This document shows positions 5,906 through 48,689 of a DNA stretch of 64,000 bases, in pieces. A program made the position numbers and the translations under genes. Where the stretch lies: contig CAZAZE010000009.1 of NCBI GenBank assembly GCA_964489545.1, positions 3,035-67,034 on the forward strand, read 5' to 3'. The notes under the pieces are model-generated. The model was not told the DNA's origin, ran no database searches, and was given only the letters and a program-made list of their open reading frames with translations. Each line of letters opens with the position of its first letter. The stretch's first letter is position 1. Origin of the DNA: an uncultured Bacteroidales bacterium. Its GTDB lineage: Bacteria; Bacteroidota; Bacteroidia; Bacteroidales; JAGOPY01.

Positions 5906-5978
5906 GCCACCAAAGCACCAATGCACAAAAGAGCACCAAAGGCTTTAGTGAATTTTGGTGTTTTCGTGTTTTTGTGGC
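5906..5978. repeat. GCCAC...GTGGC composite imperfect hairpin element (copy A)
   Basis: gccaccaaagcaccaatgcacaaaagagcaccaaagg / ctttagtgaattttggtgttttcgtgtttttgtggc. The arms are built from 8-10-nt sub-repeats. Confidence 0.7.
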
Positions 5979-6160
5979 TGAAATTCGCCGCAGAGACCGA
6001 TAGCCGTGTGCCGTTTCCAATGTCATCTTGCCTGATTCTTCTGCGGTTCACCAACACAAAAAAAAGAAAACCCCGCCGAAATTTTGATCATCGGATTTTT
6101 CTAACTTGCGCTGCCCCGCGAAACCCGCGGCATTTCCTGATCCTTAACAAACCAAAAACT

Positions 6161-8044
6161 ATGAAAACATTGAGCATGATGCTGTTGGCGCTCGCCCTCG
6201 CGCCGGTACTTTTAATCACCGCCCAGGACGCGCAGTTCGTCAAACAAACCTTTTTCGCCGATAAGAATATCGTGTTCTCGGGAATGACCCGGGGCGCCGA
6301 TGGCGGTATCCTGGTCTGCACCTCCAAGGAAAGCTTCCCGGACGACTTCAGTGGCGTAGCCATCCGCCGCCTGGCGATCAACGGCGACGTGAAAGACAAA
6401 ACGGACCTGAGACTGGATATGGTGCATAACTTCGCCCTCACGCCCGATGGCGGCTTTATCGTGCTGTTCAACTACGATATGTTCAGCGACGCGAAAGGCG
6501 TCAGGCTCGACTTCAGCAACAGCAGCGAATACTATATGGCCGAACGGGATTATGAAAACATGCCGGGGGTGGTCAAAGTGTCGAAGTACGGCAGCCTGGA
6601 ATGGGTGCTGGAACTGAAACCGGCCCAGTACTTCAGCGACGGCGACGAAAGCGCCCTCTTCGTGCTGCCGGATAACCGCTGCTGGATCGTGTTCAACTAC
6701 TCCGCCGAAGATACCACCAGCGAATTCGGCGCCCAGGACGACTTTACGCGCGCCCTGATGATCGCCGCCAACGGGACGGTCCTCTTCGAGAAAGACTTCA
6801 TCGACAACGACCACGGCGTGCTGCGTGCCCCGGTGCTGCTGGAAGACGGCCGCCTGCTGCTGTTCTCCGACACCCGGCACGCCGGCGGCGGACAGGCGCT
6901 CATGACCCTCGACACGCAGGGCAACCTTGTGCAAATGGCCGCCATCCCCGGCCTGGAAGGGGTGTTCCCGAACGATATCGTCGCCGCGGGGAACTTTGGC
7001 TTCGCATTCACCCATCACGAGAACCAGGTGAATTATGTGACGCTGATCGACCGCGCCGGGAAGACCGCCTGGAAACTCCCGGCCACCGGGAACATCCACG
7101 CGATGACCGCGGACGAAAGCGCCCTCTATGCCGTCTCCACCGAAAAAAGCCTGTATGGTGTCGCCGAAGGGACGCCGGTACGCTATACCATCACCCGCTA
7201 TGACTACAGCGGCGCCGTGACCCCGGTGATGACCCTCACCGCCGACGGGCCGGTGGATCCGAAGAAATTGATCCGGACGGAATACAGCTTCGTGATGGCC
7301 GGCAACATCAAGCAGCCAGGCGCGCAAGGGGTGGCTGTCCTGGTCACCGTGCCGGAGACCAACGCCGACATCTTCCGCAATATGAACGCCTACGACTACC
7401 GGGAATATGCCAAAGCGGTCGAAAACAACGACCTGGAACGGATCCGGGCATTGGCCGCCTTCGGGATCGACCCGGACTTCAAAGCGGGCAGTGCCGGCGA
7501 CCGCGAAACGGAAGCCGACAACCCGCTGCTCGTGGCCTTCAAGCTGGGTAAGTACGACCTCGCAGAAGAGCTGCTGAAAAGCGGCGCCGACCCCGACGCA
7601 GTCGACAAAGTTCCGGTGCGCTACTTCATCTACGAACGGGCGGAGATCTACAACCTCCCGGTCACCCCGCTGATGTACATCGCCCTGACGCCCGGCTTTT
7701 ACGACGCACCCAAATATGTAGAGCTGCTGAACAAGTACAACGCCGATTTCAAGCGCATCACGCGCGACGGAACGGCATTCCGTCAGGCGTTCCAGATGCA
7801 GAACACGGAATTCATGGACCTCTACAGCCAGTACGTTACCTTCAGCACCGACGACCTGAATAACTTATTCGCCCCGGCGTACGAGTTCAACCTCCCTCAA
7901 TCCCTGAAATGGATCCTGGACCGCGGCGCCAACGCCAACAGCACCGATTTCATGGGCGACAGCTACCTGGAAAAGGGCATGCAGTCGGACAGCAAAGAGA
8001 TCAAGGCGGTGCTGAAAGAGTGGCAGAAAACGCACAAACATTAG
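6161..8044 (+). CDS. Secreted protein with C-terminal ankyrin-like repeats
   Basis: Signal peptide MKTLSMMLLALALAPVLLITAQD at the ATG at 6161. C-terminal repeats such as NPLLVAFKLGKYDLAEELLKSGADPDAV. The upstream part of the track ORF (from 5876) is translated repeat DNA. Confidence 0.7.
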   Translation: MKTLSMMLLALALAPVLLITAQDAQFVKQTFFADKNIVFSGMTRGADGGILVCTSKESFPDDFSGVAIRRLAINGDVKDKTDLRLDMVHNFALTPDGGFIVLFNYDMFSDAKGVRLDFSNSSEYYMAERDYENMPGVVKVSKYGSLEWVLELKPAQYFSDGDESALFVLPDNRCWIVFNYSAEDTTSEFGAQDDFTRALMIAANGTVLFEKDFIDNDHGVLRAPVLLEDGRLLLFSDTRHAGGGQALMTLDTQGNLVQMAAIPGLEGVFPNDIVAAGNFGFAFTHHENQVNYVTLIDRAGKTAWKLPATGNIHAMTADESALYAVSTEKSLYGVAEGTPVRYTITRYDYSGAVTPVMTLTADGPVDPKKLIRTEYSFVMAGNIKQPGAQGVAVLVTVPETNADIFRNMNAYDYREYAKAVENNDLERIRALAAFGIDPDFKAGSAGDRETEADNPLLVAFKLGKYDLAEELLKSGADPDAVDKVPVRYFIYERAEIYNLPVTPLMYIALTPGFYDAPKYVELLNKYNADFKRITRDGTAFRQAFQMQNTEFMDLYSQYVTFSTDDLNNLFAPAYEFNLPQSLKWILDRGANANSTDFMGDSYLEKGMQSDSKEIKAVLKEWQKTHKH

Positions 8045-8051
8045 AAATTTT

Positions 8052-8075
8052 GAGGTTTAAGGTTTAAGGTTTAAG
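8052..8075. repeat. Heptamer tandem array AGGTTTA x 3
   Basis: gaggtttaaggtttaaggtttaag. The same unit recurs at 31531-31555 and, degenerate, at 26630-26650. Confidence 0.7.
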
Positions 8076-8086
8076 TTGGGGCGGCA

Positions 8087-8153
8087 CCAGTTTCCAGTTC
8101 GCAGTTCCCAGTTCCCAGTTTGCCCGAACCTGGAACTCTGGAACCCTGGAACC
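8087..8153. repeat. Hairpin made of opposed heptamer arrays (CCCAGTT x ~4 versus CTGGAAC x ~3)
   Basis: ccagtttccagttcgcagttcccagttcccagttt gcccg aacctggaactctggaaccctggaacc, directly downstream of the stop at 8044. Confidence 0.65.
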
Positions 8154-8160
8154 AACAATA

Positions 8161-8233
8161 GCCACTAAAGCACAAAAGCACAAAAGGGCACTAAAGGCTT
8201 TGGTGCATTTTAGTGTTTTCGTGTTTTTGTGGC
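8161..8233. repeat. GCCAC...GTGGC composite hairpin element (copy B), direct-repeat partner of copy A
   Basis: gccactaaagcacaaaagcacaaaagggcactaaagg / ctttggtgcattttagtgttttcgtgtttttgtggc. It shares an identical 20-mer, ttttcgtgtttttgtggctg, with copy A. Confidence 0.75.
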
Positions 8234-8287
8234 TGGAATTCACCGCCGAGGCGCAGAGTCGCAGAGCCTGTTAGCCGTTTCCATTTT

Positions 8288-8463
8288 CTTACAGTCCTAC
8301 AGTCCTGCTGTCTTACAGTCTTACAGTCCTACAGTCTTACAGTCCTAAAGTCTTACAGTCTTACCGTCCTACAGTCTTACAGTCTTACCGTCTTACCGTC
8401 TTACTGTCTTACCGTCTTACCGTCCCCGCTCCCCCGCTTCCCCGCTCCCCCGCTTCCCCGCAT
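8288..8463. repeat. Octamer tandem array, about 22 units (CTTACAGT-type grading into CCCCGCTY-type)
   Basis: Read directly. The period of 8 nt is maintained over about 176 nt upstream of the NuoE-like gene. Confidence 0.85.
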
Positions 8464-8549
8464 CTTTAGACTCCCTCCAAATTAGCGCCGGGCCGCTGGG
8501 AAACGGGAAGAAATTTTATTTTTACCACGCCAAAAAACACGGCAATCCT

Positions 8550-9077
8550 ATGCGCATTGAACGATTCATCCCCGCGGTGGGAGCTGAGGCGCAGGAAGAA
8601 ATCGACCTTTCCCTTCTCGACCGCCTCATCGAAAAATACAAGCACAAAAAAGGCAACCTCATCCCGCTGCTGCAGGGCACGCAGAATATCTACGGATTCC
8701 TGCCGCGCGTGGCTTTTGAGAAGATCGCCGCCGAGACGGGCCTCAGCCTGTCGGACATGTATGGCGTGGCCACCTTCTACGCCCAGTTCCGCCTGAAACC
8801 GGTGGGCAAACACATCATCAAAGTATGCCACGGTACGGCCTGCCACGTGCAGAACGCCAACACCATCACCGACTCGCTCCAGGAGTCGCTGAAGATCAAG
8901 GACGGCGAAACGACCGAAGACAGCCTGTTCACGCTCGAGTCGGTGGCCTGCCTGGGCTGCTGCTCCCTGGCGCCGGTGATGATGATCGGCGAGCAGACCT
9001 ACGGCAAACTCACCGGCAGCGAAGCGGTCCGGATCGTGAAGAATATCCGGATGGAAGAAGTGAAACAGAATAACTAA
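8550..9077 (+). CDS. NuoE/HoxE/HydC-like thioredoxin-fold [2Fe-2S] subunit
   Basis: KVCHGTACHV...CLGCCSLAPVMMI cysteine pattern and overall NuoE-like sequence. Confidence 0.85.
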   Translation: MRIERFIPAVGAEAQEEIDLSLLDRLIEKYKHKKGNLIPLLQGTQNIYGFLPRVAFEKIAAETGLSLSDMYGVATFYAQFRLKPVGKHIIKVCHGTACHVQNANTITDSLQESLKIKDGETTEDSLFTLESVACLGCCSLAPVMMIGEQTYGKLTGSEAVRIVKNIRMEEVKQNN

Positions 9078-9119
9078 TGTTTACAACCTCTTCCATTGAA
9101 TGTGGAGATATGAAAAGTT

Positions 9120-9229
9120 TTAACCGCAAAGGCGCACAAAGGACAACACGAAGGCACACAAAGGTCGCCATCGCGCTTATCAACCCTTAGTGCGCCTTAG
9201 TGAAGTACTTCGTGCGCCTTAGTGGTTAA
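9120..9229. repeat. TTAACCGC...GTGGTTAA composite hairpin element between the NuoE-like and NuoF-like genes
   Basis: Left arm of CACAAAGG-type sub-repeats, right arm of CCTTAGTG-type sub-repeats. Confidence 0.7.
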
Positions 9230-9263
9230 ATAAAGATGATAAATATCTCCGGATTTTTGGAGG

Positions 9264-11060
9264 ATGGAAATAAAATATGCAATGCAAAAAACAAAAGTAA
9301 TCGTCGGGCTGGGCAGCTGCGGGGTCGCGGCGGGCGCCGGCAAGGTGTACGATAAAATCAGGGCCATCCGGGAGGTGGAGCACCTCGATTTCGAGCTGAA
9401 GAAGACCTCCTGCGTCGGCATGTGCTACCGCGAGCCGCTGGTGGAGATCATCGACGAAACCGGCTCCTACCTCTACGGCGAGATCACCGAAGACCGGGCG
9501 GTGGAGCTCATCGAGAAGCACGTCAATTTGCACGACCCGGTGCGCGACTACCTCATCCAGAGCGACCTGTTCGAGACGCCGGACCGCACCTTCCTCGAGG
9601 CGCAGGTGAAGATCGTGCTGCGCAACTGCGGCTACATCGACCCGGAGCACATCGAAGAGTACGAGGCGCGCAAAGGCTACGAAGCCATACGCAGGATCGC
9701 CTCGGAGCGGATCGCCCGCACTGAGGTCATCCAGACGGTACTGAATTCCGGCATCCGCGGACGCGGCGGCGGCGGCTTCCCCACCGGCCTGAAGTGGAAG
9801 TTCGCCAACGACAACAAGTCGGACGAAAAGTACATCATCTGCAACGCCGACGAAGGCGACCCGGGCGCGTTCATGGACCGCTCGGTGCTGGAAGGCGACC
9901 CGCACTCGGTCATCGAAGGGATGATCATCGCCGCCTACGCCATCGAGGCCACCGGCGGGGTGATCTACTGCCGCGCCGAGTACCCGCTGGCCATCAAGCG
10001 CCTCAACATCGCGCTCGACCAGGCCCGGGCCAAGGGATACCTGGGGCAAGCGATCCTCGGCATTCCGGACTTCAACTTCGACATCTACATCAAGGAAGGC
10101 GCCGGCGCTTTCGTCTGCGGCGAGGAAACGGCCCTCATCGCCTCGGTGGAAGGCGAGCGCGGCATGCCCCGCAAACGCCCGCCCTTCCCGGCCGCCAGCG
10201 GCCTGTGGCGCAAGCCCACCAACATCAACAACGTGGAAACCTTCGCCAACATCCCCTGGATCATCCTCAACGGCGCGGCCGAATACGCCAAATACGGCAC
10301 CGAGAAGAGCAAGGGCACCAAGGTGTTCGCCCTGGCCGGCAAGATCAAGCGCTCGGGCCTGGTGGAGGTGCCCATGGGCATCACCATCCGCGACATCATC
10401 TTCAAGCTCGGCGGCGGCATCCAGAAAGACCGCAAGTTCAAGGCCGTGCAGATGGGCGGCCCCTCGGGCGGCTGCATCCCGGAATACATGGCCGACACCA
10501 TCGTCGACTACGACAGCGTGAACGCCACCGGCGCCATCATGGGCTCCGGCGGGATGGTCGTCATGGACGAAGACACCTGCATGGTCGACGTGGCCAAGTT
10601 CTTCCTCGACTTCACCCAGAAGGAGAGCTGCGGCAAATGCACCTTCTGCCGCGTGGGCACCAAGCGCATGCTGGAGATCCTGCAGCGCATCACCGAAGGC
10701 AGGGGCGAGGACGGCGACATCGAGCGCCTCGAGGAGCTGGCCTACCAGATCAAGGACAACTCCCTGTGCGGACTGGGCCAGACGGCGCCCAACCCGGTGC
10801 TGACCACCATCCGCTACTTCCGCCACGAGTACGAGGCGCACATCCGCGACAAGAAATGCCCGGCCAAGGCATGCAAGCAACTGCTCACCTACGAGGTCAT
10901 CGCGGAAAACTGCACCGGCTGCACCGTCTGCGCCAAGAACTGCCCGGTCGACGCCATCACCGGCAACCGCAAGGAGGTGCATTTCATCCTGCAGGACGTC
11001 TGCATCAAGTGCGGCATGTGTTACACGAAATGTAAATTCGAAGCGATAAAACTATCATGA
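9264..11060 (+). CDS. NuoF/HydB-like NADH-binding FMN/[4Fe-4S] subunit with an N-terminal 2Fe-2S-like domain and a C-terminal 2x[4Fe-4S] ferredoxin domain
   Basis: GRGGGGFPTGLKWKF (FMN), ICNADEGDPGAFMDR (NADH), ESCGKCTFCRVG, and C-terminal CTGCTVCAKNCP / CIKCGMCYTKC. Confidence 0.9.
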   Translation: MEIKYAMQKTKVIVGLGSCGVAAGAGKVYDKIRAIREVEHLDFELKKTSCVGMCYREPLVEIIDETGSYLYGEITEDRAVELIEKHVNLHDPVRDYLIQSDLFETPDRTFLEAQVKIVLRNCGYIDPEHIEEYEARKGYEAIRRIASERIARTEVIQTVLNSGIRGRGGGGFPTGLKWKFANDNKSDEKYIICNADEGDPGAFMDRSVLEGDPHSVIEGMIIAAYAIEATGGVIYCRAEYPLAIKRLNIALDQARAKGYLGQAILGIPDFNFDIYIKEGAGAFVCGEETALIASVEGERGMPRKRPPFPAASGLWRKPTNINNVETFANIPWIILNGAAEYAKYGTEKSKGTKVFALAGKIKRSGLVEVPMGITIRDIIFKLGGGIQKDRKFKAVQMGGPSGGCIPEYMADTIVDYDSVNATGAIMGSGGMVVMDEDTCMVDVAKFFLDFTQKESCGKCTFCRVGTKRMLEILQRITEGRGEDGDIERLEELAYQIKDNSLCGLGQTAPNPVLTTIRYFRHEYEAHIRDKKCPAKACKQLLTYEVIAENCTGCTVCAKNCPVDAITGNRKEVHFILQDVCIKCGMCYTKCKFEAIKLS

Positions 11061-11078
11061 CCCTTTTCTTTATATTAT

Positions 11079-11173
11079 TTAACCACAAAGGCGCACAAAG
11101 GATTTCACAAAGGCGCACAAAGGAGGATCTTCGCAGTACCACCTTCGTGTTCCTTCGTGTTCTTTCGTGGTAA
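11079..11173. repeat. TTAACCAC...GTGGTAA composite hairpin element between the NuoF-like and fusion genes
   Basis: Four CACAAAGG units face three CCTTCGTG/CTTTCGTG units. Confidence 0.7.
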
Positions 11174-11208
11174 AAAAGAATTAAAGCAAAGCACCAAAAA
11201 GGATAAAT

Positions 11209-14200
11209 ATGAGCGAAAAAGTAAATATAATCTTAAACGGCAGCATCGTCGGCGGCATCAAAGGAGAAACCATCCTGGAACTGGCCAGGCGCCATGGGAT
11301 CGAGATCCCGACCCTGTGCAACGATCCGCGGCTGGAGCCCTATACCTCCTGCTACGTCTGCGTGGTCGAGGTCGAAGGCATGCGCGGGCTGCAGCCTTCC
11401 TGCTCCACGAAGATCTCCGAGGGGATGCGCATCGAGACCGACAACGGCAAGATCCGCCAGGCGCGCAAGACCGCGCTCGACCTGCTGGTGAGCAACCATT
11501 ACGCCGATTGTATCGGGCCCTGCAAGCAGACCTGCCCGGCAGGCGTGGATGTGCAGGGCTACATCAGCCTGATCGAGAAAGGGCAGTACCACGAGGCCGT
11601 CGGGCTCATCAAGGAGACCAACCCGCTGCCGGCCATCTGCGGCCGCGTGTGCGTGCGCCCCTGCGAGGTGGCCTGCCGCCGCAACCTGCTCGACGAAGGC
11701 GCCCCCGTGGGCATCGACTACCTGAAGCGCTTCGCTTCCGACATCGACCTCGAATCGCCCGGCAAATGGAAACCCGTCATCAAGCCTTCCACCGGCAAAA
11801 AGGTCGCCGTGATCGGCGCCGGGCCCGCCGGGCTGTCGTGCGGCTTCTTCCTCCAGAAGGAAGGACACCAGGTCGATATCTTCGAGGCCAGCCCGAAAGC
11901 GGGCGGATGGCTGCGCTATGGCATCCCCGAATACCGGCTTCCGAATGACTTACTTCAGAAAGAAGTTGATAATATAACCGAGATGGGTGTGCGGATTTTC
12001 TTCAATCAGAAGTTCGGGAAAGACATCAGTTATAAGGATATTCAACAGAATTACGACGCCATGATCCTGGGCATCGGGTCGCAGAAAGGCACCCTGATCG
12101 GTTGCGACGGAGAGGATGCGGAAGGCGTTTTTTCCGGAATTGATTTCCTTAAGAACATGGAAATCACCGGAGAACGTTTTGATTTCCGCGGAAAAAAGGT
12201 CGCCGTGATCGGCGGCGGGAACACCGCCATGGACTGCTGCAGGACTTCCATCCGCTGCGGCGCCGACAAAGTGTATGTCATTTACCGCCGTACCGAAAAA
12301 GAAATGCCGGCCAATCCGATCGAGATACATGAGTCGAAACTGGAAGGAGTAGATTACATGTTTCTGACCCTTCCGGTCAAGGTAGTGAAGAGTGAACGGG
12401 GAGCGGTGAAGAGTATTATTTGCCAGAAGATGGCTCTGGGCGAACCGGATGCATCCGGGCGGAGAAGGCCCGTTCCGGTGGAAGGATCGGAATTTGAGGT
12501 GGAAGTCGATTTCATCCTGGCCGCCATCGGGCAGAAGACCGTGCCGGATTTCCTGGAGGATATCAAAGCCAGTGCCGACAACGGGGAGGTGAAAGCCAAC
12601 CGCTGGGGCGACCTCGAAGCCGATCCGGATACGTTGCAGACCGGCATCCCGTCGGTGTTCGCCGCCGGCGACGGCGTGACCGGACCGGCCACGCTCATAC
12701 AGGCCATCGCCCAGGGAAGGAAAGCTGCTCATAGCTGCGACCTCTACCTGAAAGGATTGCCGGTGGTGCCGGAACAGGCCGAATTCTTCAGCAAAAAAGA
12801 CAATTTCAAACCCCAGGTCATGGCCGACTACAAAGGCTATTTCCCGGAGCAGAAGCGCGAGGAGATGCCGACCCTCGACCCGGAGAAGCGGATGAACTTC
12901 GACGAGGTGGAGCTGGGCTACGCCTCTGAGGCCGTGGCCTTCCACGAGACGCAGCGCTGCCTGGAATGCGGCTGCACGGCCCTGTTCACCTGCGACCTGA
13001 AGAAATACTGCACCGAATACGAAGCCGACCAGAAGAAGCTGGCCGGGGAATTTAAAGAGTACCACATCGATTTCCGCCATCCCTACATCGAGATCGACAA
13101 CAACAAATGCATCCTGTGCAGCCGTTGCGTCCGCATCTGCCGCGAGGTCGTGGGCGCCAACGCCCTGGGCCTGGTGAACCGAGGGTTCGAGACCTACGTC
13201 GCGCCCAGCATGGGCAACGCCCTGCAGGACACCTATTGCGAGTCGTGCGGGCTGTGCATCACCACCTGTCCTACGGGCGCCATCACCGAGAACGTGCCGT
13301 TCAAACCCGGCCCCGTCCGGCTGGAGCCGGCAGAGACCATCTGCAACTACTGCTCGGTGGGCTGCGCCATCTCCCTCAACCACAAAAACGGCTTCGTGAT
13401 GCAGGTCACCGGCGCAGAAGGCCATGTGAACCCCGACGGCAACCTTTGCCGCTATGCCAAGTTCGGATACCATTACCTGAACGACCGGCGGCGGATCACC
13501 GCGCCCATGATGAAGGTCAACGGGAAGTTCGAAACGGTTTCCTGGGAGAAGGCATATGATGTGATCGCGCAGAAAATATCGGCCGTAAGTCCCGATGAGA
13601 ACGCCTTCTTTGCCGGCGCACGGCTCACGAACGAGGAGCAGTACCTGGTGCAAAAGCTGGCCAGGGCCGGGGCGAAGACCAACAACGTGACCAGCTTCCA
13701 TTACATGGCCCGGGGCGCCGGATACCGCGGAGACGCGATTGCCGCCACGCCCTTCAGCCAGGTCAAAGACGCCGGGAAGATCTACCTGGTCGGGTCGGAG
13801 ATCAACAGCGACAATGCGGTTTTAGGATTTAGGATTTACAATGTACAATTTGCAAAGGGGATACCGGTTTCGCTGGTAACGGACAAAACGGACAGTTCCA
13901 TGGCGCACAAGGTCGATGAGTTGATGGTGATCAAATCGTACTACCATTTCATCAAGGCCGTGAACCACTACCTGGCCTCTGCCGGGCTGCACAACGGGCT
14001 GTTCATCAAGGACAATTGCACCGGGTATGAGGAATACAAGGCCGCGCTGCTGCAGGAAAGTTTCGCGGAGCTGGTCAAACTTGCCGGTGTTTCGGAGCTG
14101 GACGTGATCGATTTCGCGAAGCGCTACAACGAAGAGCAGAACGCCATCATCGTGTTTTCGGAGAAAGAGCTTTCGTCGAACGCCTGCACCGAGCTGTTCA

Positions 14201-14931: not shown

Positions 14932-15373
14932 GGATACCGATTCCATTCTGCTGTTCGCGATCGAGCAGGAACAGAAAGCGGTCGATTTTTATACCGATCT
15001 GGCCCGTGAGGCCCATTCGGAGGAGATGAAGCGCGTCTTCATCGAGTTCGCCGGCGAGGAGATCAAACACAAGCAGCGGCTGACGAAGATCCGGGAAGAG
15101 GGCGTGTTCACCATGCCCATGGAGCGGGTCGCCGATCTGAAGATCAGCGATTACGTGGTCGAGGTGAAGGCCGGCGGCAAGCTCAGCTACGAAGAGGCGC
15201 TGGTGCTGGCCATGAAGCGGGAGAAGGCCGCTTTCCGGTTGTACAGCAGCCTGGCGGAACGCGCGCCGAGCCCGGAGGTGAGAGATATCTTCCTGGCCCT
15301 GGCCCTGGAAGAATCGCGGCATAAGCTGCGGTTCGAGGTGGAGTACGACGAGTACGTGCTGCGGGAGAACTGA
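14918..15373 (+). CDS. Rubrerythrin-like ferritin-fold diiron protein (no rubredoxin domain)
   Basis: LLFAIEQEQKAVDFY...FAGEEIKHKQ...LALALEESRHK E-x-x-H type motifs. The start overlaps the upstream stop by 14 nt. Confidence 0.7.
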   Translation: MKEFKDTDSILLFAIEQEQKAVDFYTDLAREAHSEEMKRVFIEFAGEEIKHKQRLTKIREEGVFTMPMERVADLKISDYVVEVKAGGKLSYEEALVLAMKREKAAFRLYSSLAERAPSPEVRDIFLALALEESRHKLRFEVEYDEYVLREN

Positions 15374-15375
15374 GG

Positions 15376-15457
15376 CATTTCGCATTGCGCAGTGTGGATT
15401 TCGCATTTCGCAGTATCATTGAGAAATGAGAAATTTGTATTGCGAAATGAGCAATAG
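15376..15457 (+). terminator. Imperfect hairpin of opposed heptamer units (ATTTCGC versus GAGAAAT/GCGAAAT) after the rubrerythrin-like gene; possible terminator
   Basis: catttcgcattgcgcagtgtggatttcgcatttcgcag ... gagaaatgagaaatttgtattgcgaaatgagcaat begins 3 nt after the stop codon. Confidence 0.4.
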
Positions 15458-15496
15458 TTCATTATCTTTGTATCGAACTATTGCTTATTTTATATT

Positions 15497-23088: not shown

Positions 23089-23196
23089 AGGGACTCCAAC
23101 AGGGACTCCGTCCCTGTCGGTAATTTATTAATTATCAACTCTCTTAAAATTAGATATTCAAGGGACGGAGTCCCTTATCAAAAGGACGGAGTCCCT
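23089..23196. promoter_or_regulatory. Three copies plus one half-site of the 15-bp palindrome AGGGAC-GGA-GTCCCT in a divergent promoter region
   Basis: agggactccgtccct 23101-23115 (inverted centre), agggacggagtccct 23161-23175, aggacggagtccct 23183-23196, half-site agggactcc 23089-23097. Confidence 0.55.
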
Positions 23197-23245
23197 TTCA
23201 CCAACTTTTTTCTTAAATTTGCTTTATAGATCTAACGAATTCCCC

Positions 23246-26260: not shown

Positions 26261-26354
26261 GCCACAAAAGCACAAAATCACTAAGGAACACAAAACGGTT
26301 GTAATTAGTTAAATTAGAAGTAAATGCGATTTGGTGTTTTTGTGTTTTGGTGGC
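26261..26354. repeat. GCCAC...GTGGC composite hairpin element (copy E)
   Basis: gccacaaaagcacaaaatcactaagg...gatttggtgtttttgtgttttggtggc. Confidence 0.6.
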
Positions 26355-31516: not shown

Positions 31517-31530
31517 GCTTTTTTCAGTGT

Positions 31531-31633
31531 TAAGGTTTGAGGTTTAAGGTTTAAGTTCAATTTTCAGTATTCTAAGCTCTAAGCTCCAAGCTCTAAGCCC
31601 TAAGCTCTGAGCTCTAAGCCCTAAGCCCTGAGG
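31531..31633. repeat. Heptamer arrays AGGTTTA (x3) and CTAAGCT (x~9) in the purE/hpt divergent spacer
   Basis: taaggtttgaggtttaaggtttaag; ctaagctctaagctccaagctctaagccctaagctctgagctctaagccctaagccctgagg. Confidence 0.85.
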
Positions 31634-39014: not shown

Positions 39015-39046
39015 AAAAAAGGGCGCTCCCGATTCGGGAAGCGCCC
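39015..39046 (-). terminator. Identical copy of the terminator at 32312-32343
   Basis: Same sequence, at an offset of 6703 nt. Confidence 0.8.
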
Positions 39047-40131
39047 TTTGCTTTGAAGCATGATTTCGGTTACCGGGTGACGATGATCTTCCGCATGACC
39101 TGGCTCTGGCCGGTGCGGATGGTCAGGGTGTAGATGCCTTTGGGCACGTTGCCCAGGTCGATGTCGAGCCGGCCCTGTCCGCTGATGACCACGTCGGCCT
39201 TTTCGTAGATGCGGATACCAAGGTGGTTCACCACTTCGGCCTGGTAGGTGGTTTCTGTCTTATTGACAAAGGCCACGGTGAACTTCCCGCTGTTGGGTAT
39301 GGGGAAGATATTCAGGCTGGTGCCGGGCAGTTCGTCGATCCCCACGAAGATGACCTCCACGTGGTTGGATTCCTGTGAGGAGCAACCGTTGAGGGTGACG
39401 ATGGTCCAGTAGAAGCCTTCCTCTTCGGCCTGGTGGGTCTGCCCGGTGGCGCCTTCGATGGGGTTACCGTTGAAGTACCACTGGTTTCCGTCGGGTGCGC
39501 TGCTGGTGAGCAGGTAGTCGCCGTCGACGGTCACGACCGGTGCGGGCGGGATGGGGTTGACGGTGACGAAGAAGGCGGGCGAGGCCGGTCCGTTACCGCA
39601 GTTGTTGACTGCGGCCACGGTGATGTTGCCGGAGCTGGCGCCGGGTCCGAAGAAGACCTTGATGGCGGGTGTTCCTTCGCCTTCGAAGATGGTGGCGCCG
39701 GCGGGCACGGTCCAGTCGTAGGAGAGGGCTCCGGCGACGGGCGCCACGCTGTAGCTGGCGTTTTGGCCCATGCAGAGTTCGTCAACGCCGGTGATGGCGC
39801 CGGGTGCCACGGGCACGCCCATGACGGTGACGGCGAAGCTGGCCGGTGTTGCGGCGGGGCATCCGGAAGCGTTGTCATAATTGACCGTGACGGTCTTGCT
39901 GCCCGGGGTGGTCCAGTTGACTTCGATCTGGTAGGTTCCCTGGCCGGAGACGATGGTGCCGCCGGTGGAGACGGTCCAGGAATAGTCGCTGAATCCCTGC
40001 TCGGTGGTGTAGACGAACAGGCCGGAGTTGGCGCACATCATATTCGATCCGGAGATGGTCGGCGAAGGCAGCCCGCTGACCTGGACGGGCATCACGGCGG
40101 GCGCGGCGGCGGGGCAGCCGGCGGCGCTGGT
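39015..40131. repeat. 1117-bp block identical to 32312-33428 (copy 2)
   Basis: As for copy 1. Confidence 0.85.
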
Positions 40132-43100: not shown

Positions 43101-45747
43101 CAAAGGTAAAGCTGTAATCGTTACCGCCGAGATATGCCGCCTGTACCCCGGTATAGGCGCCGGCGTTGATCTTCCAGTAGAGCATCGGAAGCCCTGTTCC
43201 AACGGTCGGTACCCCTGAAGCATCAGTGATGGTGGCTGTCAGGGTGCGTGCTCCTGTGCCGGAAGTGTTGCTCAGCGGGGTGTATACAATATTCGGGGGC
43301 GTCAGGTCGATCGGAATGCCCGTAAATTCGTCCGCTCCGACATCGGGAGTGCTGCCGTTGCGTGCCTGGCCGTCGAAGTCGTCAGTGATACCGGCAACGG
43401 GCGTCCCGCCGCTTTCGATCTGCGTGGCTATGGCTTCATTGATGTGCAGGAAATCTGCACTTGTGCCGGTCAGGCTCTTGAAATTGGGATCTTCGGTAAA
43501 GGAGGAACCCTCAGCAGGCGCCACCAGGGCCTTATAATCACCAATACCCTGCGCCAGGTTGGTTCCGTCGTAAAAAACGAGACGTGTGGCACCGGGCGTA
43601 CCTGCATAGTAAAGGTTGTTGTTGGAGGCTGACGCGAAGTTGGTAAGCGATGTGCTGGAACGCTGATAGGCCACAGTGTAACCGGTTCCCGCCGGGGTGG
43701 ATTTGTTGACGATGACGTTGTTTTTCAGCGTGAGCGCAGCCGTGGTTGCAGTCGTGGAGGTAGTGACATACAATCCTGCAGTGGCAAAGTTCGCTCCGGT
43801 ACTGCTGGCGCTGAGGTAAACAGAGTTAAATGAAATATTGATCGCAGTAGTCGTGCTGGTGGTGGTCACATTGATCCCCCGGACCGATGGGGCGGTGGGA
43901 CCCGTGGAACTGGCGGCCGGGGCCCTGAGGTCGCCGATCAGGTTGTTGTAAATGCTGGCAACACCTGATGTTCCCAGGCTGCCCTGGAGGATACCAGATA
44001 CGGTGGGCGCGCCCGTAGAAGTGCTCTGAATGTTCCAGATCTTGTTCTTGAAGATGTTCGGGGAACTGCTCGCCATATTGATCCCGGCAATTGTAGTCCC
44101 CGCGCCGGTAATGTTGTATATCTGGTTTAAGCTGACCGTGCGTGTGCCGGTGGTAGTGAAGGCATACAAGCCGTATACGGTTCCGGTGCCGTTGTGGGTC
44201 AGGTTCCTGATAACGTTGTCGTTGTAATTTTCATTCGTCGGGGAACTGATATTGTACATTCCGTATAAGGCACTGGTCCCGGTGGTCTTGATGCAGCTTA
44301 GGTTCTCTATAATGTTGTTGTTAGCCACGACAGTGGTCCCCGAAGTCTGGATCCCGTAAAGCGTGCTCGTCGATCCTGTGCCGTCAATACTAAGGTTAGA
44401 CACCGAATTGTTGCTTACGGTCTGGGTAGTTCCGCTGGAAACATAAATGCCAATGGTCGTTCCGCCCGTAGTGCCGGTCCGGAAATGATTGGAAACAGTG
44501 TTATCGGTGACATTCACTGCCGTCGCCGACCCGGAGTTGTAGAGCAGGTAATTCACCCCGGACCCGGCCAGCGACACTGCACTGTAATTCGTATTGGATA
44601 CAGTGTTGTCGTTGATGTTGACTGTTGCCGCCGATGCTGAACTCCATATTCCGTAAAACACCCCGGTAGTGGCAGTAAGATATTCCCCGGTCAGGACATT
44701 ATTGTTGATATTCACGGTATTGCCTGCTGCGGTAGAACCGATGACATTCTCGATCATCGCCACCTGCGAGGTGGTGCCGCCGCCTTTAATCGTGATATTA
44801 TTGTAATTAATGCTGGCATTGGCACTGGTACCGGCCTGCGCATAGATGCCCCGCAGAGTGGAGGGATGGTTAACACCTGCCCCGTTGTTGTTGTTGATGG
44901 TGTTGTAAGAGATGTTCACATCCCAGACATTGTTTACCCGGATTCCGGCAGAAGGGTTGGTGGACCCGGTTCCACCCCCGAAATTAAGAATGGTGTTGCC
45001 GGTGGTGGGTGAGGATCCCCCGATATCATTGCCGGTGTCGCCCAGCGTGAACGGTGTGGCTGCGGCATACCCGTTGATCACAATACCATAGTTACAGTTC
45101 TGCAAAGTGTTGGAATAAAACATGTTGAAAGAGTTGGTTCCATTTGCCGAGGTTGGGGTCAGTGCTGTGGTTTGCGCGGCGGCGGTCGCGTTGATCACAT
45201 TGATCGCCTTGGAACCTTCCACTGAAGGGCCGCTTCCGGATGCGAAGTTCTGCCTGTTGAGCGTCACCACGCAGTTCTTGATGGTGTTGTACTGGCAGCC
45301 ATTGTCGGCGTCGGCCTTGAAGAAGGCAAACCCGTACTCCATCATGGCATTGCCGCTGGCATTGGGATCGACCAGCTCGATACCATCGATGGTTACGTAA
45401 TCCGAACCGGCCAGGTTCCAGATCCCGTCCTGCACGGCCGAGTTGGGCGCGTTGGCTCCGGCATAAGCGGTGATCAGCGGAAGAGCGCCCGCCCCGCTTT
45501 TCTGGAAGATGATGGGATTGGCGGCCGTACCTGTGGCGGTCACTGATAAGGGCGCCGTGATGAGCTCAGTGTAGCCGGAGGCAATGTTAAACGTGACTCC
45601 GCCGGCACCCACGCCCTGGGCGTTGAGCGCGGTGATGGCGGCCTCAACGGTCGCATAGTCGCCCGGAATCGTTTTGACGCCGGATAACTGCCCGAAGGAT
45701 AGCTGGAAAGCTGCCAGGGCAAAAGTAAAAAGAAGCAGTTTTTTCAT
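39070..45747 (-). CDS. Giant (about 2225 aa) paralog of the adjacent surface protein; the last 354 codons are identical
   Basis: Signal peptide MKKLLLFTFALAAFQLSFGQ (ATG at 45747; track start 45768). Same architecture as 32367..38807. Confidence 0.85.
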   Translation of the reverse strand: MKKLLLFTFALAAFQLSFGQLSGVKTIPGDYATVEAAITALNAQGVGAGGVTFNIASGYTELITAPLSVTATGTAANPIIFQKSGAGALPLITAYAGANAPNSAVQDGIWNLAGSDYVTIDGIELVDPNASGNAMMEYGFAFFKADADNGCQYNTIKNCVVTLNRQNFASGSGPSVEGSKAINVINATAAAQTTALTPTSANGTNSFNMFYSNTLQNCNYGIVINGYAAATPFTLGDTGNDIGGSSPTTGNTILNFGGGTGSTNPSAGIRVNNVWDVNISYNTINNNNGAGVNHPSTLRGIYAQAGTSANASINYNNITIKGGGTTSQVAMIENVIGSTAAGNTVNINNNVLTGEYLTATTGVFYGIWSSASAATVNINDNTVSNTNYSAVSLAGSGVNYLLYNSGSATAVNVTDNTVSNHFRTGTTGGTTIGIYVSSGTTQTVSNNSVSNLSIDGTGSTSTLYGIQTSGTTVVANNNIIENLSCIKTTGTSALYGMYNISSPTNENYNDNVIRNLTHNGTGTVYGLYAFTTTGTRTVSLNQIYNITGAGTTIAGINMASSSPNIFKNKIWNIQSTSTGAPTVSGILQGSLGTSGVASIYNNLIGDLRAPAASSTGPTAPSVRGINVTTTSTTTAINISFNSVYLSASSTGANFATAGLYVTTSTTATTAALTLKNNVIVNKSTPAGTGYTVAYQRSSTSLTNFASASNNNLYYAGTPGATRLVFYDGTNLAQGIGDYKALVAPAEGSSFTEDPNFKSLTGTSADFLHINEAIATQIESGGTPVAGITDDFDGQARNGSTPDVGADEFTGIPIDLTPPNIVYTPLSNTSGTGARTLTATITDASGVPTVGTGLPMLYWKINAGAYTGVQAAYLGGNDYSFTFGTGVVLNDEVSYYIVAQDNVAPTPNIGANPSGGAAGFTANPPACSTPPTTPASYVIVGTLSGTYAVGAGQTYPTLTAAIADLNLKDVIGPVTFELWDASYSAGETFPLIVIPYLGEDPSRPVTIKPKAGVTATVTGSSTTGIIVLYGVDYLTIDGSNSGGDDKSLTWENTSTTSSSYTIGVFNSGGNPASNCTIKNCTIKATPQVTNSTYAIILNASGGGYDNIVIHNNTISHARYGIQFAGVAGSVATNGQVTNNIIGSSVDAEAIQYRGIVVSYADNTLIRDNEIMGAPLGNANYSQAGIYMITGSTNTKIHSNNIHDWYYTGTGGWGQYGIYISADATTVTEIINNSIYNIKADGYSASVSSLNPHGIYIGAGGNMKIYHNTINLEGNVLSSSYSSWTGCITALSSVTLLDIRDNILKNSLQPISGSMAHKTYAVLTAGTNTQFTDIDYNNYYVDGISPFIGYMGSDKLTLADWQAATGKDIYSKNINPSFASPSDLHPTNTALDNLGYYLATVPKDQAGITRTNPPDMGALEFGNNPQITTTAASNITCESAVINGTVMANGNTVNTYFDYGLTNAYGSTIAGTPAQVTGNTPVNVTASIASLDPATTYHFRIRVITADNVTSYGGDMMFMTDATAAPTAVTNNASNIGTNSATMNGTVNANCETATVSFEYGTSPAYGTMVTAAESPISGGVLTPVSFDLTGLLTGQVYHYRVVATSTAGTTYGADATFTTGANPPTVVTNPASGIGNFTATLNGTVNANNQLTTVWFEWGLTNGYGSTAPGVPASVSGDVTTPVLANLSGLSYNTSYHFRCVAQNPAGTTYGQDMMFTTACPIPETAGAITGPTALCQSTPGQVYTVAPITYATGYAWTVPTGATIVAGANTNSITVDFGAQAVSGNVSVYGTSVCGNGAASNLAVTVNPLPVPSITGATIGCIGSSYTYTTESGMTGYAWTVSAGGQITAGAGTASVTVQWNSLGSQSISVTYTSAAGCPAAAPAVMPVQVSGLPSPTISGSNMMCANSGLFVYTTEQGFSDYSWTVSTGGTIVSGQGTYQIEVNWTTPGSKTVTVNYDNASGCPAATPASFAVTVMGVPVAPGAITGVDELCMGQNASYSVAPVAGALSYDWTVPAGATIFEGEGTPAIKVFFGPGASSGNITVAAVNNCGNGPASPAFFVTVNPIPPAPVVTVDGDYLLTSSAPDGNQWYFNGNPIEGATGQTHQAEEEGFYWTIVTLNGCSSQESNHVEVIFVGIDELPGTSLNIFPIPNSGKFTVAFVNKTETTYQAEVVNHLGIRIYEKADVVISGQGRLDIDLGNVPKGIYTLTIRTGQSQVMRKIIVTR

Positions 45748-46030
45748 GATTTTAGGATTAAAGTTCATATGAAGACTTAAAAAATCATTACATGATTATT
45801 ACAAAATCAACAAAATCAAAAACGAGAAACTGGAAGAATTTTGAGAGAACCCGGGAAAGAAATATGAGTATAAAGTTACGAAATAACCTTTCGAAATATT
45901 AAGCTATGTGTTAAAAAAATGATGATTTCGATCACTTTTTGAATACAGATCTGATAAGGAGCACAGGGTGGCCTGATTTCAGGTTGACCGGGATTCTGAT
46001 TATCTTTGCCCTTCATTAAACAGTTCAACC

Positions 46031-47035
46031 ATGTCTGTCCCCAATTTCGTCGATTATGTCAAGATCCACTGCCGCAGCGGCAAGGGCGGTGCGGGCTCGG
46101 CGCACCTGCACCGGGCGAAGTACATCCCAAAGGGCGGCCCCGATGGGGGCGACGGGGGGCGCGGCGGCCACATCATCCTGAAAGGAAACCGACAACTCTG
46201 GACCCTGCTCCATCTGAAATACACCAAACACATCAAGGCCGGTAACGGCGAGCCAGGAGGGCCGTCGCTCAGCACCGGCGCCAGCGGGGACGACAAGATC
46301 ATCGAGGTGCCCCTGGGCACCGTGGCCCGGTTGGATGAAACCGGGGAAACGCTGTTTGAGATCACCGAACACGACGAAACCCGAATCCTGCTGCCCGGCG
46401 GCAGGGGCGGCCTCGGCAACGACCATTTCAAATCGGCCACCAACCAGACCCCGCGCTTTGCCCAGCCCGGCGAACCGGCACAGGAAGCCTGGATCATCCT
46501 GGAACTGAAACTGCTGGCCGACGTCGGACTGGTGGGCTTTCCCAACGCCGGGAAATCCACCCTGCTGTCCGTCGTCAGTGCCGCCAAACCCGAAATCGCC
46601 GATTATCCGTTCACGACGCTTACACCAAACCTTGGAATTGTTTCTTATCGCGACGGGACCTCGTTTATCATGGCCGATATCCCCGGGATCATAGAAGGCG
46701 CACACGAAGGCCGCGGCCTGGGACTTCGCTTCCTGCGTCATATCGAACGAAATTCACTGCTGTTGTTCATGATCCCGGTCGATGCGGACGATATCAGGAA
46801 AGAATTTGAGATCCTGCTCAATGAATTGAAGCAGTATAACCCCGAACTCCTTGACAAGCCCCGCCTGCTGGCCCTGACCAAAACCGATATGATCGACGAA
46901 CAGATGAAGGAGGAAATGCGCCGCGAACTGCCGCCCGTGCCTTACGTGTTTATTTCGTCAATAACCGGCGACGGCATCATGAAACTGAAGGACATGATCT
47001 GGAAAGAACTGAACCGCAGCCATTCATTCGACTGA
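46031..47035 (+). CDS. obg: GTPase Obg
   Basis: [53 protein letters not shown]. Confidence 0.92.
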
Positions 47036-47037
47036 TC

Positions 47038-47616
47038 ATGCTCGAAACCCTGAATAATATTGATACCAGCGTCTTCCTCGCTGTCAATGGCGCCCACAAC
47101 GCGTTTTTCGACACGGTCATGTTCTGGGTTTCCGACAAATGGATCTGGATCCCGTTGTATGTGTTCCTGGCCTACCTGGTCATCAGGCATTACGGGCGTA
47201 AAAGCTGGATTTTCCTGGCCATGGCCGGCCTCGTTGTCGTATTCACCGACCAGACTTCGGTGAACCTGTTTAAATTCGTTTTTCTCCGCCCCAGGCCCTG
47301 CCACGAGCCGGAACTGGCCGGCCTCGTCCACCTGGTCAATGGAAAATGCGGCGGTCCGTATGGTTTTATTTCCTCGCACGCGGCGAATTCCTTCGGGATC
47401 GCAGCCTACCTGGCGCTGGTTCTGGGAAAGAAGATCCGGTTTTTCACCCCGGCCATCCTGCTCTGGGCCGCCTTGCTATCCTACAGCCGGGTTTACCTGG
47501 GCGTGCACTACCCCGGCGACATCCTCGCCGGCGCCCTCTGGGGTTCCGCCCTCGGCGCCGCCGTTTTCATCCTCACAATAAAAATACCCCCCCCAACATC
47601 AATCACTAAACCTTAA
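47038..47616 (+). CDS. PAP2-family lipid phosphatase
   Basis: FISSHAANSF and YSRVYLGVHYPGDILAG motifs. Confidence 0.8.
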   Translation: MLETLNNIDTSVFLAVNGAHNAFFDTVMFWVSDKWIWIPLYVFLAYLVIRHYGRKSWIFLAMAGLVVVFTDQTSVNLFKFVFLRPRPCHEPELAGLVHLVNGKCGGPYGFISSHAANSFGIAAYLALVLGKKIRFFTPAILLWAALLSYSRVYLGVHYPGDILAGALWGSALGAAVFILTIKIPPPTSITKP

Positions 47617-47696
47617 TAATTAAGCATTAATAATTAAGCACTAATAATTAAACATTAAACATTAAACATTAAACATTAAACATTAAACACTAAACA
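47617..47696. repeat. AT-rich tandem arrays (TAATAATTAAGCAY x ~2.5, then TTAAACA heptamer x ~7) filling a convergent spacer
   Basis: Runs from the TAA of the PAP2 gene (47614-47616) to the TAA of the minus-strand gene (47697-47699). Confidence 0.85.
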
Positions 47697-48158
47697 TTAG
47701 TACCCATACGCCCTTCCTTCCATCCTGTCAATCTTTACCCGCATCACCATCACATCCCGCACCGCCGGTCCGCTGTAATCAAACTCCCGCGGCGAGTATT
47801 GTTTCATGACTACATTCAGGCACCGGATCTTCTCCTCCGGCGATTCGATGAATTCCGCCCGGCCGTAAACATTCACGCTCCGGTACCGCATGCCCCAGCT
47901 GCAGGCCACCTCTTCGTTGACATACCGGAGTTCATGGTCCGTGCTGAAGTTGATGCAGACTTCCGCATTCTTCAGCAGCGCGTCGACTTTTTTCCCCTTC
48001 TGCGCGCCGTGGAAATAAACATATTCCCCGTCGTAGCCGAAATTCATCGGGAGCACATAGGGCTTTCCCTCTGCATCGATCATCCCGACGGAACAAAACT
48101 GGCACCGGGCGATGATGCCATCTAATTCGGGCTTAAAGGTTAAGGCGCGGCTTTTCAT
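47697..48158 (-). CDS. Pyridoxamine 5'-phosphate oxidase-like flavin-binding protein
   Basis: CSVGMIDAEGKPYVLPMNFGYDGEYVYFHGAQKGKK is a split-barrel-type sequence. ATG at 48158. Confidence 0.65.
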   Translation of the reverse strand: MKSRALTFKPELDGIIARCQFCSVGMIDAEGKPYVLPMNFGYDGEYVYFHGAQKGKKVDALLKNAEVCINFSTDHELRYVNEEVACSWGMRYRSVNVYGRAEFIESPEEKIRCLNVVMKQYSPREFDYSGPAVRDVMVMRVKIDRMEGRAYGY

Positions 48159-48514
48159 GGCTCTTCCCTTCTGACAATGGTGGTGGAACTGGTGCCGAAC
48201 AAAGAGGCGATGATGCTCAGGATCACGCTGAACAGCAGGGCCCACCAGAAGCCGTCGACGGTAAATCCGGGCACGATCCTGCCGATCAGCACAATGATGA
48301 ACGCGTTGATCACAAGCAGGAACAGCCCAAGAGTGATCACCGTAACGGGGATCGTCAGGAAGATCAGGATGGGCCGGATAAAGGTGTTGATGATGGCCAG
48401 GGCGATCGCCACCATCAGTGCGGTGACGAACTTGTCGATGTGCACGCCGGGCAGCAGCCAGGCCGTCAGCAGCACCGCGCCGGTATAGATCAGCAAACGA
48501 AGGATAACTTTCAT
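48155..48514 (-). CDS. DUF360 / phage-holin-4_2-family membrane protein
   Basis: Four hydrophobic spans and a typical family sequence (LLTAWLLPGVHIDKFVTALMVAIALAIINTFIRPIL). ATGA overlap with the downstream gene. Confidence 0.7.
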   Translation of the reverse strand: MKVILRLLIYTGAVLLTAWLLPGVHIDKFVTALMVAIALAIINTFIRPILIFLTIPVTVITLGLFLLVINAFIIVLIGRIVPGFTVDGFWWALLFSVILSIIASLFGTSSTTIVRREEP

Positions 48515-48585
48515 CGAATTAGATTAAGTATTACAAATATAGTTCTTTTAAAGCCGGGATGAAAAGAGGATGGCTCAAATGTATA

Positions 48586-48689
48586 TAACCACAGAGAAAT
48601 CAGAGTATTCACAGAGGGAGCAGAGAGTTGAGTGTCTTTTAAATAACCCTCTGTTAACTCTGCGTATCCTCTAATACCTCCGTGGTTAA
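48586..48689. repeat. TAACCAC...GTGGTTA composite hairpin element (CAGAG-type sub-repeats)
   Basis: taaccacagagaaatcagagtattcacagagggagcagagag ... ccctctgttaactctgcgtatcctctaatacctccgtggttaa. Confidence 0.65.

Follow-up and report, generated by a model that had tools for sequence, protein, structure and literature searches.

Intergenic hairpins of an uncultured Bacteroidales bacterium as probable gene-less members of a repeat family that brackets GxxExxY genes

Six hairpins between genes in a 64-kb window

We analyzed a 64,000-nucleotide stretch of DNA from an uncultured Bacteroidales bacterium (contig CAZAZE010000009.1 of assembly GCA_964489545.1; the whole stretch is called the window here) in which an earlier reading of the letters alone had noticed six hairpin elements. 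All six lie where this sequence-only reading placed them and carry the terminal clamps and sub-repeat arms that it described. We refer to them as A to F, and no strand is assigned to any of them. Each is intergenic, between protein-coding genes. Element A (5906-5978) separates divergent genes and has GCCAC...GTGGC clamps around a 4-nt loop, with CACNAAAG four times in one arm and, facing it, TTTTNGTG four times in the other. Its paralogue B (8161-8233) has the same clamps and 8-nt CACNAAAG/TTTTNGTG units between co-oriented genes, and E (26261-26354) has them around a 40-nt loop between convergent PPDK-N-like and YgaP-like genes. The clamps of C, D and F are of the form (T)TAACCRC...GYGGTTA(A), and their units are CACAAAGG or CACAGAG at a spacing of 9-12 nt. 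Both C and D lie inside an operon of NuoE-like, NuoF-like and fusion genes. Element C (9120-9229), whose TTAACCGC...GTGGTTAA clamps enclose CACAAAGG-type units at intervals of 10-12 nt, lies in the spacer between the NuoE-like and NuoF-like genes. Element D (11079-11173) lies in the one between the NuoF-like gene and the fusion gene; its left arm has four CACAAAGG units, and its right arm has three CCTTCGTGTT units that are identical to one another. Element F (48586-48689) is a TAACCAC...GTGGTTA hairpin of CACAGAG/CAGAG units with co-oriented minus-strand genes on either side. There are variant termini as well, as F begins ATAACCAC and D ends GTGGTAA.

The two arms of each element pair better than shuffled controls. 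We folded every element on both strands against 200 dinucleotide shuffles, and all six fold better than their shuffles on at least one strand, with best-strand z scores from -3.0 to -9.9. On the plus strand the GCCAC-clamped elements score -3.0 (A), -5.9 (B) and -4.9 (E). The scores are -7.8 on the plus and -9.9 on the minus strand for C, -6.0 and -8.1 for F, and -6.9 on the best strand for D. Tandem Repeats Finder (TRF) output resolves every arm into an array of period 8-10, and a crude scan for periodic-arm hairpins that was part of this analysis recovered only four of the elements.

A conserved word with one free position

A common word, CAC-N-RAR(R), is repeated in tandem in the arms of all six elements, where it faces (Y)YTY-N-GTG. 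An exact-pattern scan with GCCACNAAAGCACNAANNCACNAA over one genome per species (596 Gb) found at least 118 loci in about 90 species, against about 4 expected under a uniform model. The matches listed include Bacteroidota of many orders, Balneolaceae, Ignavibacteriota, Acidobacteriota and Planctomycetota, and about 50 of those listed are complete hairpins of the same design. A cultured carrier, Neolewinella antarctica DSM 105096, has a complete hairpin too (L109 2949-3013). Because the CAC and the purine run are kept in sequence across phyla, the family is not one of architecture alone, as the sequence-only reading had proposed. Its grouping of the six elements as one family stands. Its count of six does not, since such hairpins are more widespread in the window (for example at 8087-8153 and 51621-51731). 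In eight Bacteroidales metagenome-assembled genomes (MAGs; L055, L099, L074, L072, L093, L043, L046 and L115) the CAC hairpin is nested within an outer inverted repeat, GAGTCCACTCCGAAAAG...CTTTTCGGAGTGGACTC, which makes a composite palindrome of about 140 nt; we looked for the outer repeat GAGTCCACTCCGAAAAG in the 64-kb window and did not find it.

The mismatch that had been pointed out in the elements recurs at position 4 of the unit, and it is real in both D and C. Each left CACAAAGG of D faces CCTTCGTG or CTTTCGTG, giving A.C on the plus strand and G.U on the minus strand, and the minus strand folds 12 kcal/mol better (-42.1 versus -30.3 kcal/mol). Three of the four facing units in C are CCTTAGTG (A.A), and the fourth is CTTCGTG. 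We tabulated position 4 in about 45 hairpins, using 137 facing unit pairs anchored on CAC/GTG. The pairs comprise 35 Watson-Crick, 15 G.T, 12 A.C and 75 other mismatches, which is the chance expectation for independent bases.

Variation between copies falls on the same position. Elements A and B are identical at 65 of 73 sites; of the eight differences, the 8 N positions account for five (P = 1.9e-4) and the 48 core positions for one. Likewise, the changes between D and its orthologues in two relatives are confined to N and the spacers between units. The strand richer in G.U matches the direction of flanking transcription in 12 hairpins and opposes it in 12, and in the gene-bearing cassettes described below the sense strand has 69 G.U pairs and the antisense strand 63. 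We conclude that N is an unconstrained position in a constrained word and that the mismatch recurs because this position is free; it is neither a selected bulge nor a one-strand wobble. The chance-level table thus rules out a selected mismatch, and the wobble-orientation counts rule out a functional antisense RNA, of which the mismatch had been taken as a possible sign.

Arms of the same kind bracket GxxExxY genes

We sought a link to a gene by looking for left and right arms that lie far apart. In L026 (5833-6537) and L068 (6831-7316), an open reading frame (ORF) of the GxxExxY family (TIGR04256, E 3e-32) lies between a left arm of the form GCCAC(CACNAAAR)n and a right arm of the form (YTTTNGTG)nGTGGC. 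The intact ORF of L068 spans 6876-7280. The loop in L070 retains only a C-terminal fragment of the ORF, its last ~33 codons. In L068 the full cassette has an empty hairpin (7337-7434) as its neighbor, and what remains of the ORF in the loop of this hairpin is the first ~12 nt, with the ATG and first codons, along with the last ~8 nt. Genomes other than that of the window therefore have full, eroded and empty cassettes side by side.

The association holds in a sample drawn by protein only. We took 80 metagenome loci, 69 of them distinct and with enough flank, scored a strict arm within 110 nt upstream or downstream of the gene, and used windows from the same loci as controls. A left arm is present at 46 of the 69 loci, a right arm at 55 and both at 41, compared to 3 of 1029 control windows for the left arm and 5 of 1029 for the right (0.3-0.5%). 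Arms are thus enriched more than 100-fold precisely at both ends of GxxExxY genes. Their clamps are GCCAC (41) or ACCAC (5) on the left and GTGGC (49) or GTGGT (6) on the right, and three further loci obtained by exact-protein look-up (L123, L133 and L134) have the same arms round GxxExxY. The units of gene-flanking arms include CACAAAGG, CACTAAGG and CACGAAGA in addition to CACNAAAR, and the last left unit frequently merges into the ribosome-binding site (CACAAAGGAGGAATATG). Clamps of the (T)TAACCAC...GTGGTTA(A) type (TTAACCAC/GTGGTTAA) lie beside GxxExxY genes in L159, L167, L179, L186, L201 and L213. The genes share the orientation of their upstream neighbor in 52 of 61 cases and of their downstream neighbor in 53 of 60, and fit tightly in their spacers, which matches the operon-internal positions of C and D.

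The GxxExxY family (PF13366/TIGR04256), whose proteins have about 130 amino acids and retain a D...E-x-K motif when aligned, is part of the PD-(D/E)XK superfamily, and its function is listed as 'Unknown' (Steczkiewicz et al. 2012, PMC3424549). It is large, with more than 8,000 clusters at 90% identity in one search, and a protein recorded for an Ignavibacteriota MAG shares 82% identity with a Bacteroidales copy. A PDB relative was not found by sequence, PADLOC gave no match, and a structure prediction from a shallow alignment reached a predicted local distance difference test (pLDDT) score of 51. In viral contigs the hairpin pattern had one match and GxxExxY none, so carriage by phages is unsupported. 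We found no description of flanking arms, or of a pairing of gene and repeat, in the literature on GxxExxY, PF13366 or TIGR04256.

One locus holds a second kind of cargo. At 2759-3255 of L123, inverted arms built from a different tandem unit (AATTCGTTAA..) enclose a gene for a four-helix-bundle protein (PF05635, '23S rRNA IVS protein'). This cassette is 900 nt from the GxxExxY cassette, and two cargo families therefore use the same layout at neighboring spacers.

Assignment of the window's hairpins to the arm family

The six elements all carry a clamp of the GCCAC...GTGGC or ACCAC...GTGGT type and facing arrays of CAC words, as do the arms that flank genes. We built hidden Markov model (HMM) profiles only from arms flanking GxxExxY genes, using both arms, and searched them against the window. 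Their only significant matches in it are A, B and E, with overall E-values of 1.7e-5 to 7e-3 and individual ones of 1.7e-5 to 7e-3 at A, 8.6e-5 to 2e-3 at B and 1.2e-4 to 7e-3 at E. By sequence similarity, then, we class A, B and E as members of the GxxExxY arm family. In L006, CACAGAGG/CACAAAGG units at a spacing of 9-12 nt surround a GxxExxY pseudogene that has one in-frame stop. This is the dialect of C, D and F, and these three are probable members judging from the words they share. A profile of ORF 3' ends, used to look for a relic of the gene in the loop of E, gave just a weak and unconvincing extension. Protein-bound DNA, which the sequence-only reading had named as another possible functional form, is compatible with these assignments, and the suggestion becomes more concrete now that the arms are those flanking genes of a predicted nuclease fold.

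Units and whole elements turn over quickly

Using NuoF homologues of 88-91% identity, we located four orthologous operons in relatives (L119-L122). Element D is present in the window, L120 and L121; the corresponding spacer is 7 nt in L119 and 24 nt in L122, both of which lack it. Its left arm is nearly identical in the three carriers, and its right arm consists of three identical CCTTCGTGTT units in the window as opposed to four differing units in L120 and L121. An extra 12-nt unit follows position 11150 of D in sludge and hot-spring DNA runs (X1, X2 and X5). The nuoE-nuoF spacer differs even in repeat type among the five relatives: the window and L121 have a CACAAAGG hairpin there, L119 and L120 have a C5/G5 hairpin, and L122 has plain octamers in tandem. 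Element E is absent from the same convergent junction of L119, where the gap is 9 nt. These comparisons support the homogenization of each arm independently of the other, as the sequence-only reading had argued, by slippage of units, and they show that the elements turn over quickly.

Run X5 also contains one contig in which 9090-9281, the region of C, is replaced by 192 nt of unlike sequence of the same length.

RNA contigs run across elements C and D

In two anaerobic-digester metatranscriptomes, contigs continue uninterrupted across C (8594-10584) and D (10555 onward), with partial processing or DNA carry-over possible. Neither C nor D is followed by a T tract, and the stems are A/U-rich with periodic mismatches. 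Elements C and D are not efficient terminators and are transcribed with the operon. The read-through contigs, the lack of T tracts and the nature of the stems led us to reject intrinsic (Rho-independent) terminators as a class.

A search of Rfam 15 over the window and 11 related loci returned nothing at gathering score except two tRNAs, with sub-threshold hits resembling miRNA precursors only. Intervening sequences (IVSs) of 23S rRNA were rejected, since all six elements lie between protein-coding genes and RNA contigs are unbroken across C and D (partial processing being possible). The intrastrand-triplex motif (PMC4666352) was also rejected, as it is a different, G/C-rich motif.

Solo arms and other repeats

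Elements A and B also share about 55 nt of 3' flank (plus strand, 5979-6025 beside A, TGRAATTCRCCGC..GAG..GCCGTTTCCA, aligned with 8234-8286 beside B), so the unit of which these two paralogues are copies extends beyond the hairpin itself. A solo arm without a facing arm lies upstream of A on the plus strand (5851-5873); its sequence, TTAACCGCAGAGACGCAGAGACC, is made up of CGCAGAGA units and a TTAACCGC clamp. A nearly identical string is present in L012, an Acidobacteriota MAG, and, as a full hairpin, in L122 (8930-9015). The surrounding region of this relative (8826-9015) holds a TTAACCGC...GCGGTAAAA hairpin of CGCAGAGT/CGCGGAGG/CGCAAAGA units directly 3' of a tRNA-Met gene. In two Ignavibacteria MAGs (L025 and L092), one and the same AlaX-like gene is preceded by a solo left arm (GCCACAAAAGCACTAAAR...) at a distance of 30-40 nt from the start codon, which shows that an arm on its own can be retained as the 5' leader of a host gene.

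The window holds other repeats with unrelated units. The hairpin at 8087-8153 has the layout of the six elements, with (CCAGTTY)x5 on the left and (CTGGAAC)x3 on the right, and the same heptamer forms an in-frame array (60435-60469) inside a pseudouridine synthase gene. The best inverted repeat of the window, at 51621-51731, has 40-nt arms of TACTATG/CATAGTA heptamers that are 95% complementary, and adjoins a 172-amino-acid ORF on the minus strand (51732-52250) without a Pfam match. Long plain arrays occupy the intergenic regions at 8287-8461 (TCTTACAG x17, drifting to CCCCGCTY), 47595-47699 (AACATTA x15), 59979-60090 (TCAGAAC x16) and 31530-31632 (TTAAGGT/TCTAAGC). Over 8021-8504, the depth of RNA and DNA contigs is 10-50x that of the flanks, which implies that these units are common to many loci or organisms in the sludge samples. 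At 23160-23205, just upstream of a PPDK-N-like gene at 23219, the palindrome GGGACGGAGTCCCTT occurs as two direct copies 20 nt apart, possibly a binding site for a regulator. Finally, the region between a rubrerythrin-like gene and a DUF134 operon (15375-15490) contains GCATTTC heptamers, then GAGAAAT/GCGAAATG units, then a separate hairpin with a perfect 16-nt stem (15445-15490).

Discussion

Our best explanation is that the six hairpins are probably gene-less members of an inverted-repeat arm family whose full-length copies bracket a GxxExxY gene. Each arm consists of CAC-N-RAR(R) words in a short tandem run, with a GCCAC/GTGGC or (T)TAACCAC/GTGGTTA(A) clamp at its closed end. With all units nearly the same word, each left unit is able to pair with every right unit, so the hairpin persists while the two arms gain and lose units separately by slippage. 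Gene-less hairpins may arise from cassettes by loss of the gene, or they may be copied in trans in the manner of miniature inverted-repeat transposable elements (MITEs) or REPINs. By analogy with the Ssn/NTS and REP/RAYT systems discussed below, the nuclease-fold protein could be what reads the CAC words, and the elements would be largely selfish passengers of operon spacers.

Several observations weigh against this explanation. No GxxExxY gene was found in the window or in about 70 kb of the four relatives (L119-L122). For C, D and F the assignment depends on words and clamps in common with the gene-flanking arms and on a single pseudogene locus; in the HMM search the termini of C and D come next after A, B and E, at non-significant E-values (1-5; about 1 for C), and F has no match. 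Comparing occupied with empty spacers, we saw no target-site duplication, clean empty site or movement, and spacers with and without an element differ in their flanks too. A second strain (X3, X4 and X8) has no listed difference in the 189 nt from 9089 to 9277, which cover C and nearly the whole spacer, and the genes on either side diverge by 3.8-4.7%. The chance of a difference-free C spacer is about 1e-3 to 1e-4, in what is one comparison, and the unchanged spacer could reflect constraint and a host function, or a recent exchange of the spacer. Hairpins of unrelated units (8087 and 51621) and plain tandem arrays occupy other spacers, so that a general repeat-generating process independent of GxxExxY may be at work. 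Additionally, the nuclease activity of GxxExxY is a prediction from its fold family.

The direction of the association could also be the reverse of the one we favor, with the hairpins existing first as dispersed landing pads or homing sites, GxxExxY as a secondary invader of their loops, and the gene-less copies as empty targets. The pattern matches listed do include more than 10 gene-less copies for every gene-bearing one, PD-(D/E)XK homing endonucleases exist, and the arms would give homology for repair. However, the ORF start and end codons kept in the empty L068 loop and the ORF fragment in L070 argue for deletion from a full copy, and no cut/uncut allele pair was seen, which makes this order of events unlikely. 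A host function in cis is another candidate. The hairpins would then be regulatory RNAs of operon spacers (mRNA stabilizers, RNase III sites or translational insulators) that are selected in place, like REP/BIME stabilizers or intercistronic stem-loops. The strong folds of the elements, the presence of C and D in RNA contigs from within a co-transcribed operon, and the C spacer without listed differences in a strain 4-5% diverged in the flanking genes all speak for such a function. The pairing itself does not behave this way, as there is no covariation, N pairs at chance and the G.U strand is unrelated to transcription (12/12; 69/63). Moreover, the same spacer in close relatives is without the element or has unrelated repeats, A lies between divergent and E between convergent genes, and Rfam has no match. 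We therefore regard a selected cis-acting RNA as improbable.

Spacers of the window are full of 7-8-nt arrays with many different units, orthologous spacers swap repeat types, units vary by insertion and deletion, and repeats of this sort are known in Cyanobacteria, Beggiatoaceae and Bacteroidetes (PMC4679880). The hairpins might thus be by-products of a general short-tandem-repeat process of slippage and template switching on 7-10-nt units, of the LSSR/STRR type, with no dedicated protein; the GxxExxY link would come from genes landing in repeat-rich spacers. Such a process would hardly account for the same word and clamp in several phyla, for the more than 100-fold enrichment of arms at GxxExxY ends, or for core positions that are conserved while N varies, and we consider it improbable as well. 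By far the least probable reading makes the hairpins classical repetitive extragenic palindromes (REPs) that a RAYT (Y1) transposase mobilizes, or else MITEs derived from an ordinary insertion sequence. In its favor, they are multicopy palindromes between genes, and relative L119 does have a Y1_Tnp gene, but this RAYT is flanked by its own, different REPs (CCGACGACTAAAGCCGTCGG), and the hairpins show no GTAG/CGTC head, no target-site duplication and no related transposase end.

Comparison with known systems places the gene-less hairpins and their GxxExxY cassettes near several of them. The closest likeness is to the Ssn nucleases, which occur with NTS/SRM repeats in Neisseria and many other bacteria, 71% having at least one repeat and 42% a repeat on both sides (Chenal et al. 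2025, PMC11893778). In both cases a small single-domain nuclease gene, predicted as such for GxxExxY, lies between its own hairpin-forming repeats, the repeat is also dispersed without the gene between other genes, and the association rates are close (67-80% on one side and 59% on both for GxxExxY). They differ in that Ssn is a GIY-YIG protein with demonstrated cleavage of single-stranded DNA, whereas GxxExxY has a PD-(D/E)XK fold and is a putative nuclease, and in that the NTS is a single short palindrome, whereas the CAC arms are tandem word arrays.

The REP/REPIN-RAYT systems (PMC3116915, PMC3733652) likewise consist of dispersed intergenic palindromes that flank a cognate enzyme gene and of gene-less copies that far outnumber it. 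REPs, however, are single palindromes of 20-40 nt with GTAG/CGTC heads and a Y1 HUH enzyme, unlike the tandem arrays, GCCAC/TTAACC clamps and nuclease-fold partner described here. We rejected REP/RAYT membership, as the hairpins lack a GTAG/CGTC head and the one Y1_Tnp gene encountered (L119 17116-17631) has other REPs on its flanks. At that locus (L119 17000-17900), four 64-nt tandem repeats, each with the palindrome CCGACGGCTTTAGTCGTCGG, lie on one side of the RAYT-like gene and an inverted copy lies on the other; this is the classical REP/RAYT layout and is unrelated to the CAC hairpins. The MITEs (Correia/NEMIS, RPE and ERIC) resemble the elements in being short, non-coding and co-transcribed, with inverted ends, presence/absence polymorphism and the look of internally deleted autonomous elements, but here no transposase, target-site duplication or defined insertion boundary was seen. 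Membership was rejected for MITEs as well: inverted ends are present, but spacer comparisons gave no duplication or clean empty site, and no insertion sequence with these ends was seen. The sequence-only reading would have given up its claim of a new class for a match to a MITE or REP family with a known transposase. We found none, and the partner is instead the GxxExxY family, which is not a known transposase.

The 23S rRNA IVSs with S23p of Coxiella and Leptospira (PMC4990558) also carry a small ORF in the loop of a long inverted-repeat stem that is tolerated in a transcribed region, ORF-less versions exist, and a PF05635 four-helix-bundle gene lies between unit-array arms in L123 too. IVSs are located in rRNA helices and excised by RNase III, whereas here the sites are operon spacers, the ORF is GxxExxY and RNA contigs are unbroken. 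The STRR, LSSR and TAACTGA repeats (MacGregor 2015, PMC4679880) share with the arms intergenic units of 7-10 nt repeated in tandem, patchy occurrence among phyla, Bacteroidetes included, and quick slippage. They are direct repeats (with one inverted case, in BOGUAY) and have no associated gene, in contrast to facing arrays tied to a gene family. The arms are LSSR/STRR-like in having intergenic head-to-tail units of 6-11 nt in variable copy number; their inverted pairing and their link to a gene go beyond this.

Judging from these comparisons, the elements appear to be dispersed hairpin repeats tied to a small nuclease-fold gene, a pairing that we did not find in print. That the class had not been described before, as the sequence-only reading supposed, agrees with our literature search, in which no paper on it was found. 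A wider proposal, by analogy with Ssn and RAYT, is that the CAC hairpins and GxxExxY together form a nuclease-plus-repeat system with a fold new to this role. The ~130-amino-acid PD-(D/E)XK protein would read phased CAC-N-RAR words, probably in single-stranded or extruded DNA, and would maintain hundreds of gene-less hairpins in operon spacers of Bacteroidota, Ignavibacteriota, Acidobacteriota and Planctomycetota, with exchange between phyla. Parallel dialects and other cargo (the 'IVS protein') would point to a general class of cassettes. We advance this proposal tentatively and regard it as rather unlikely.

The finding ties GxxExxY to a defined and easily synthesized array of DNA words, which allows a direct biochemical test of function. 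It also explains a common and unannotated kind of intergenic hairpin in Bacteroidota and other phyla. Such hairpins break metagenome assemblies, and inside operons they can be mistaken for terminators or riboswitches, a point that matters for annotation. If the protein proves to be a sequence-specific nuclease for structured or single-stranded DNA, it would be a third type of enzyme, after Ssn and RAYT, that maintains dispersed repeats, and it may be of use as a tool.

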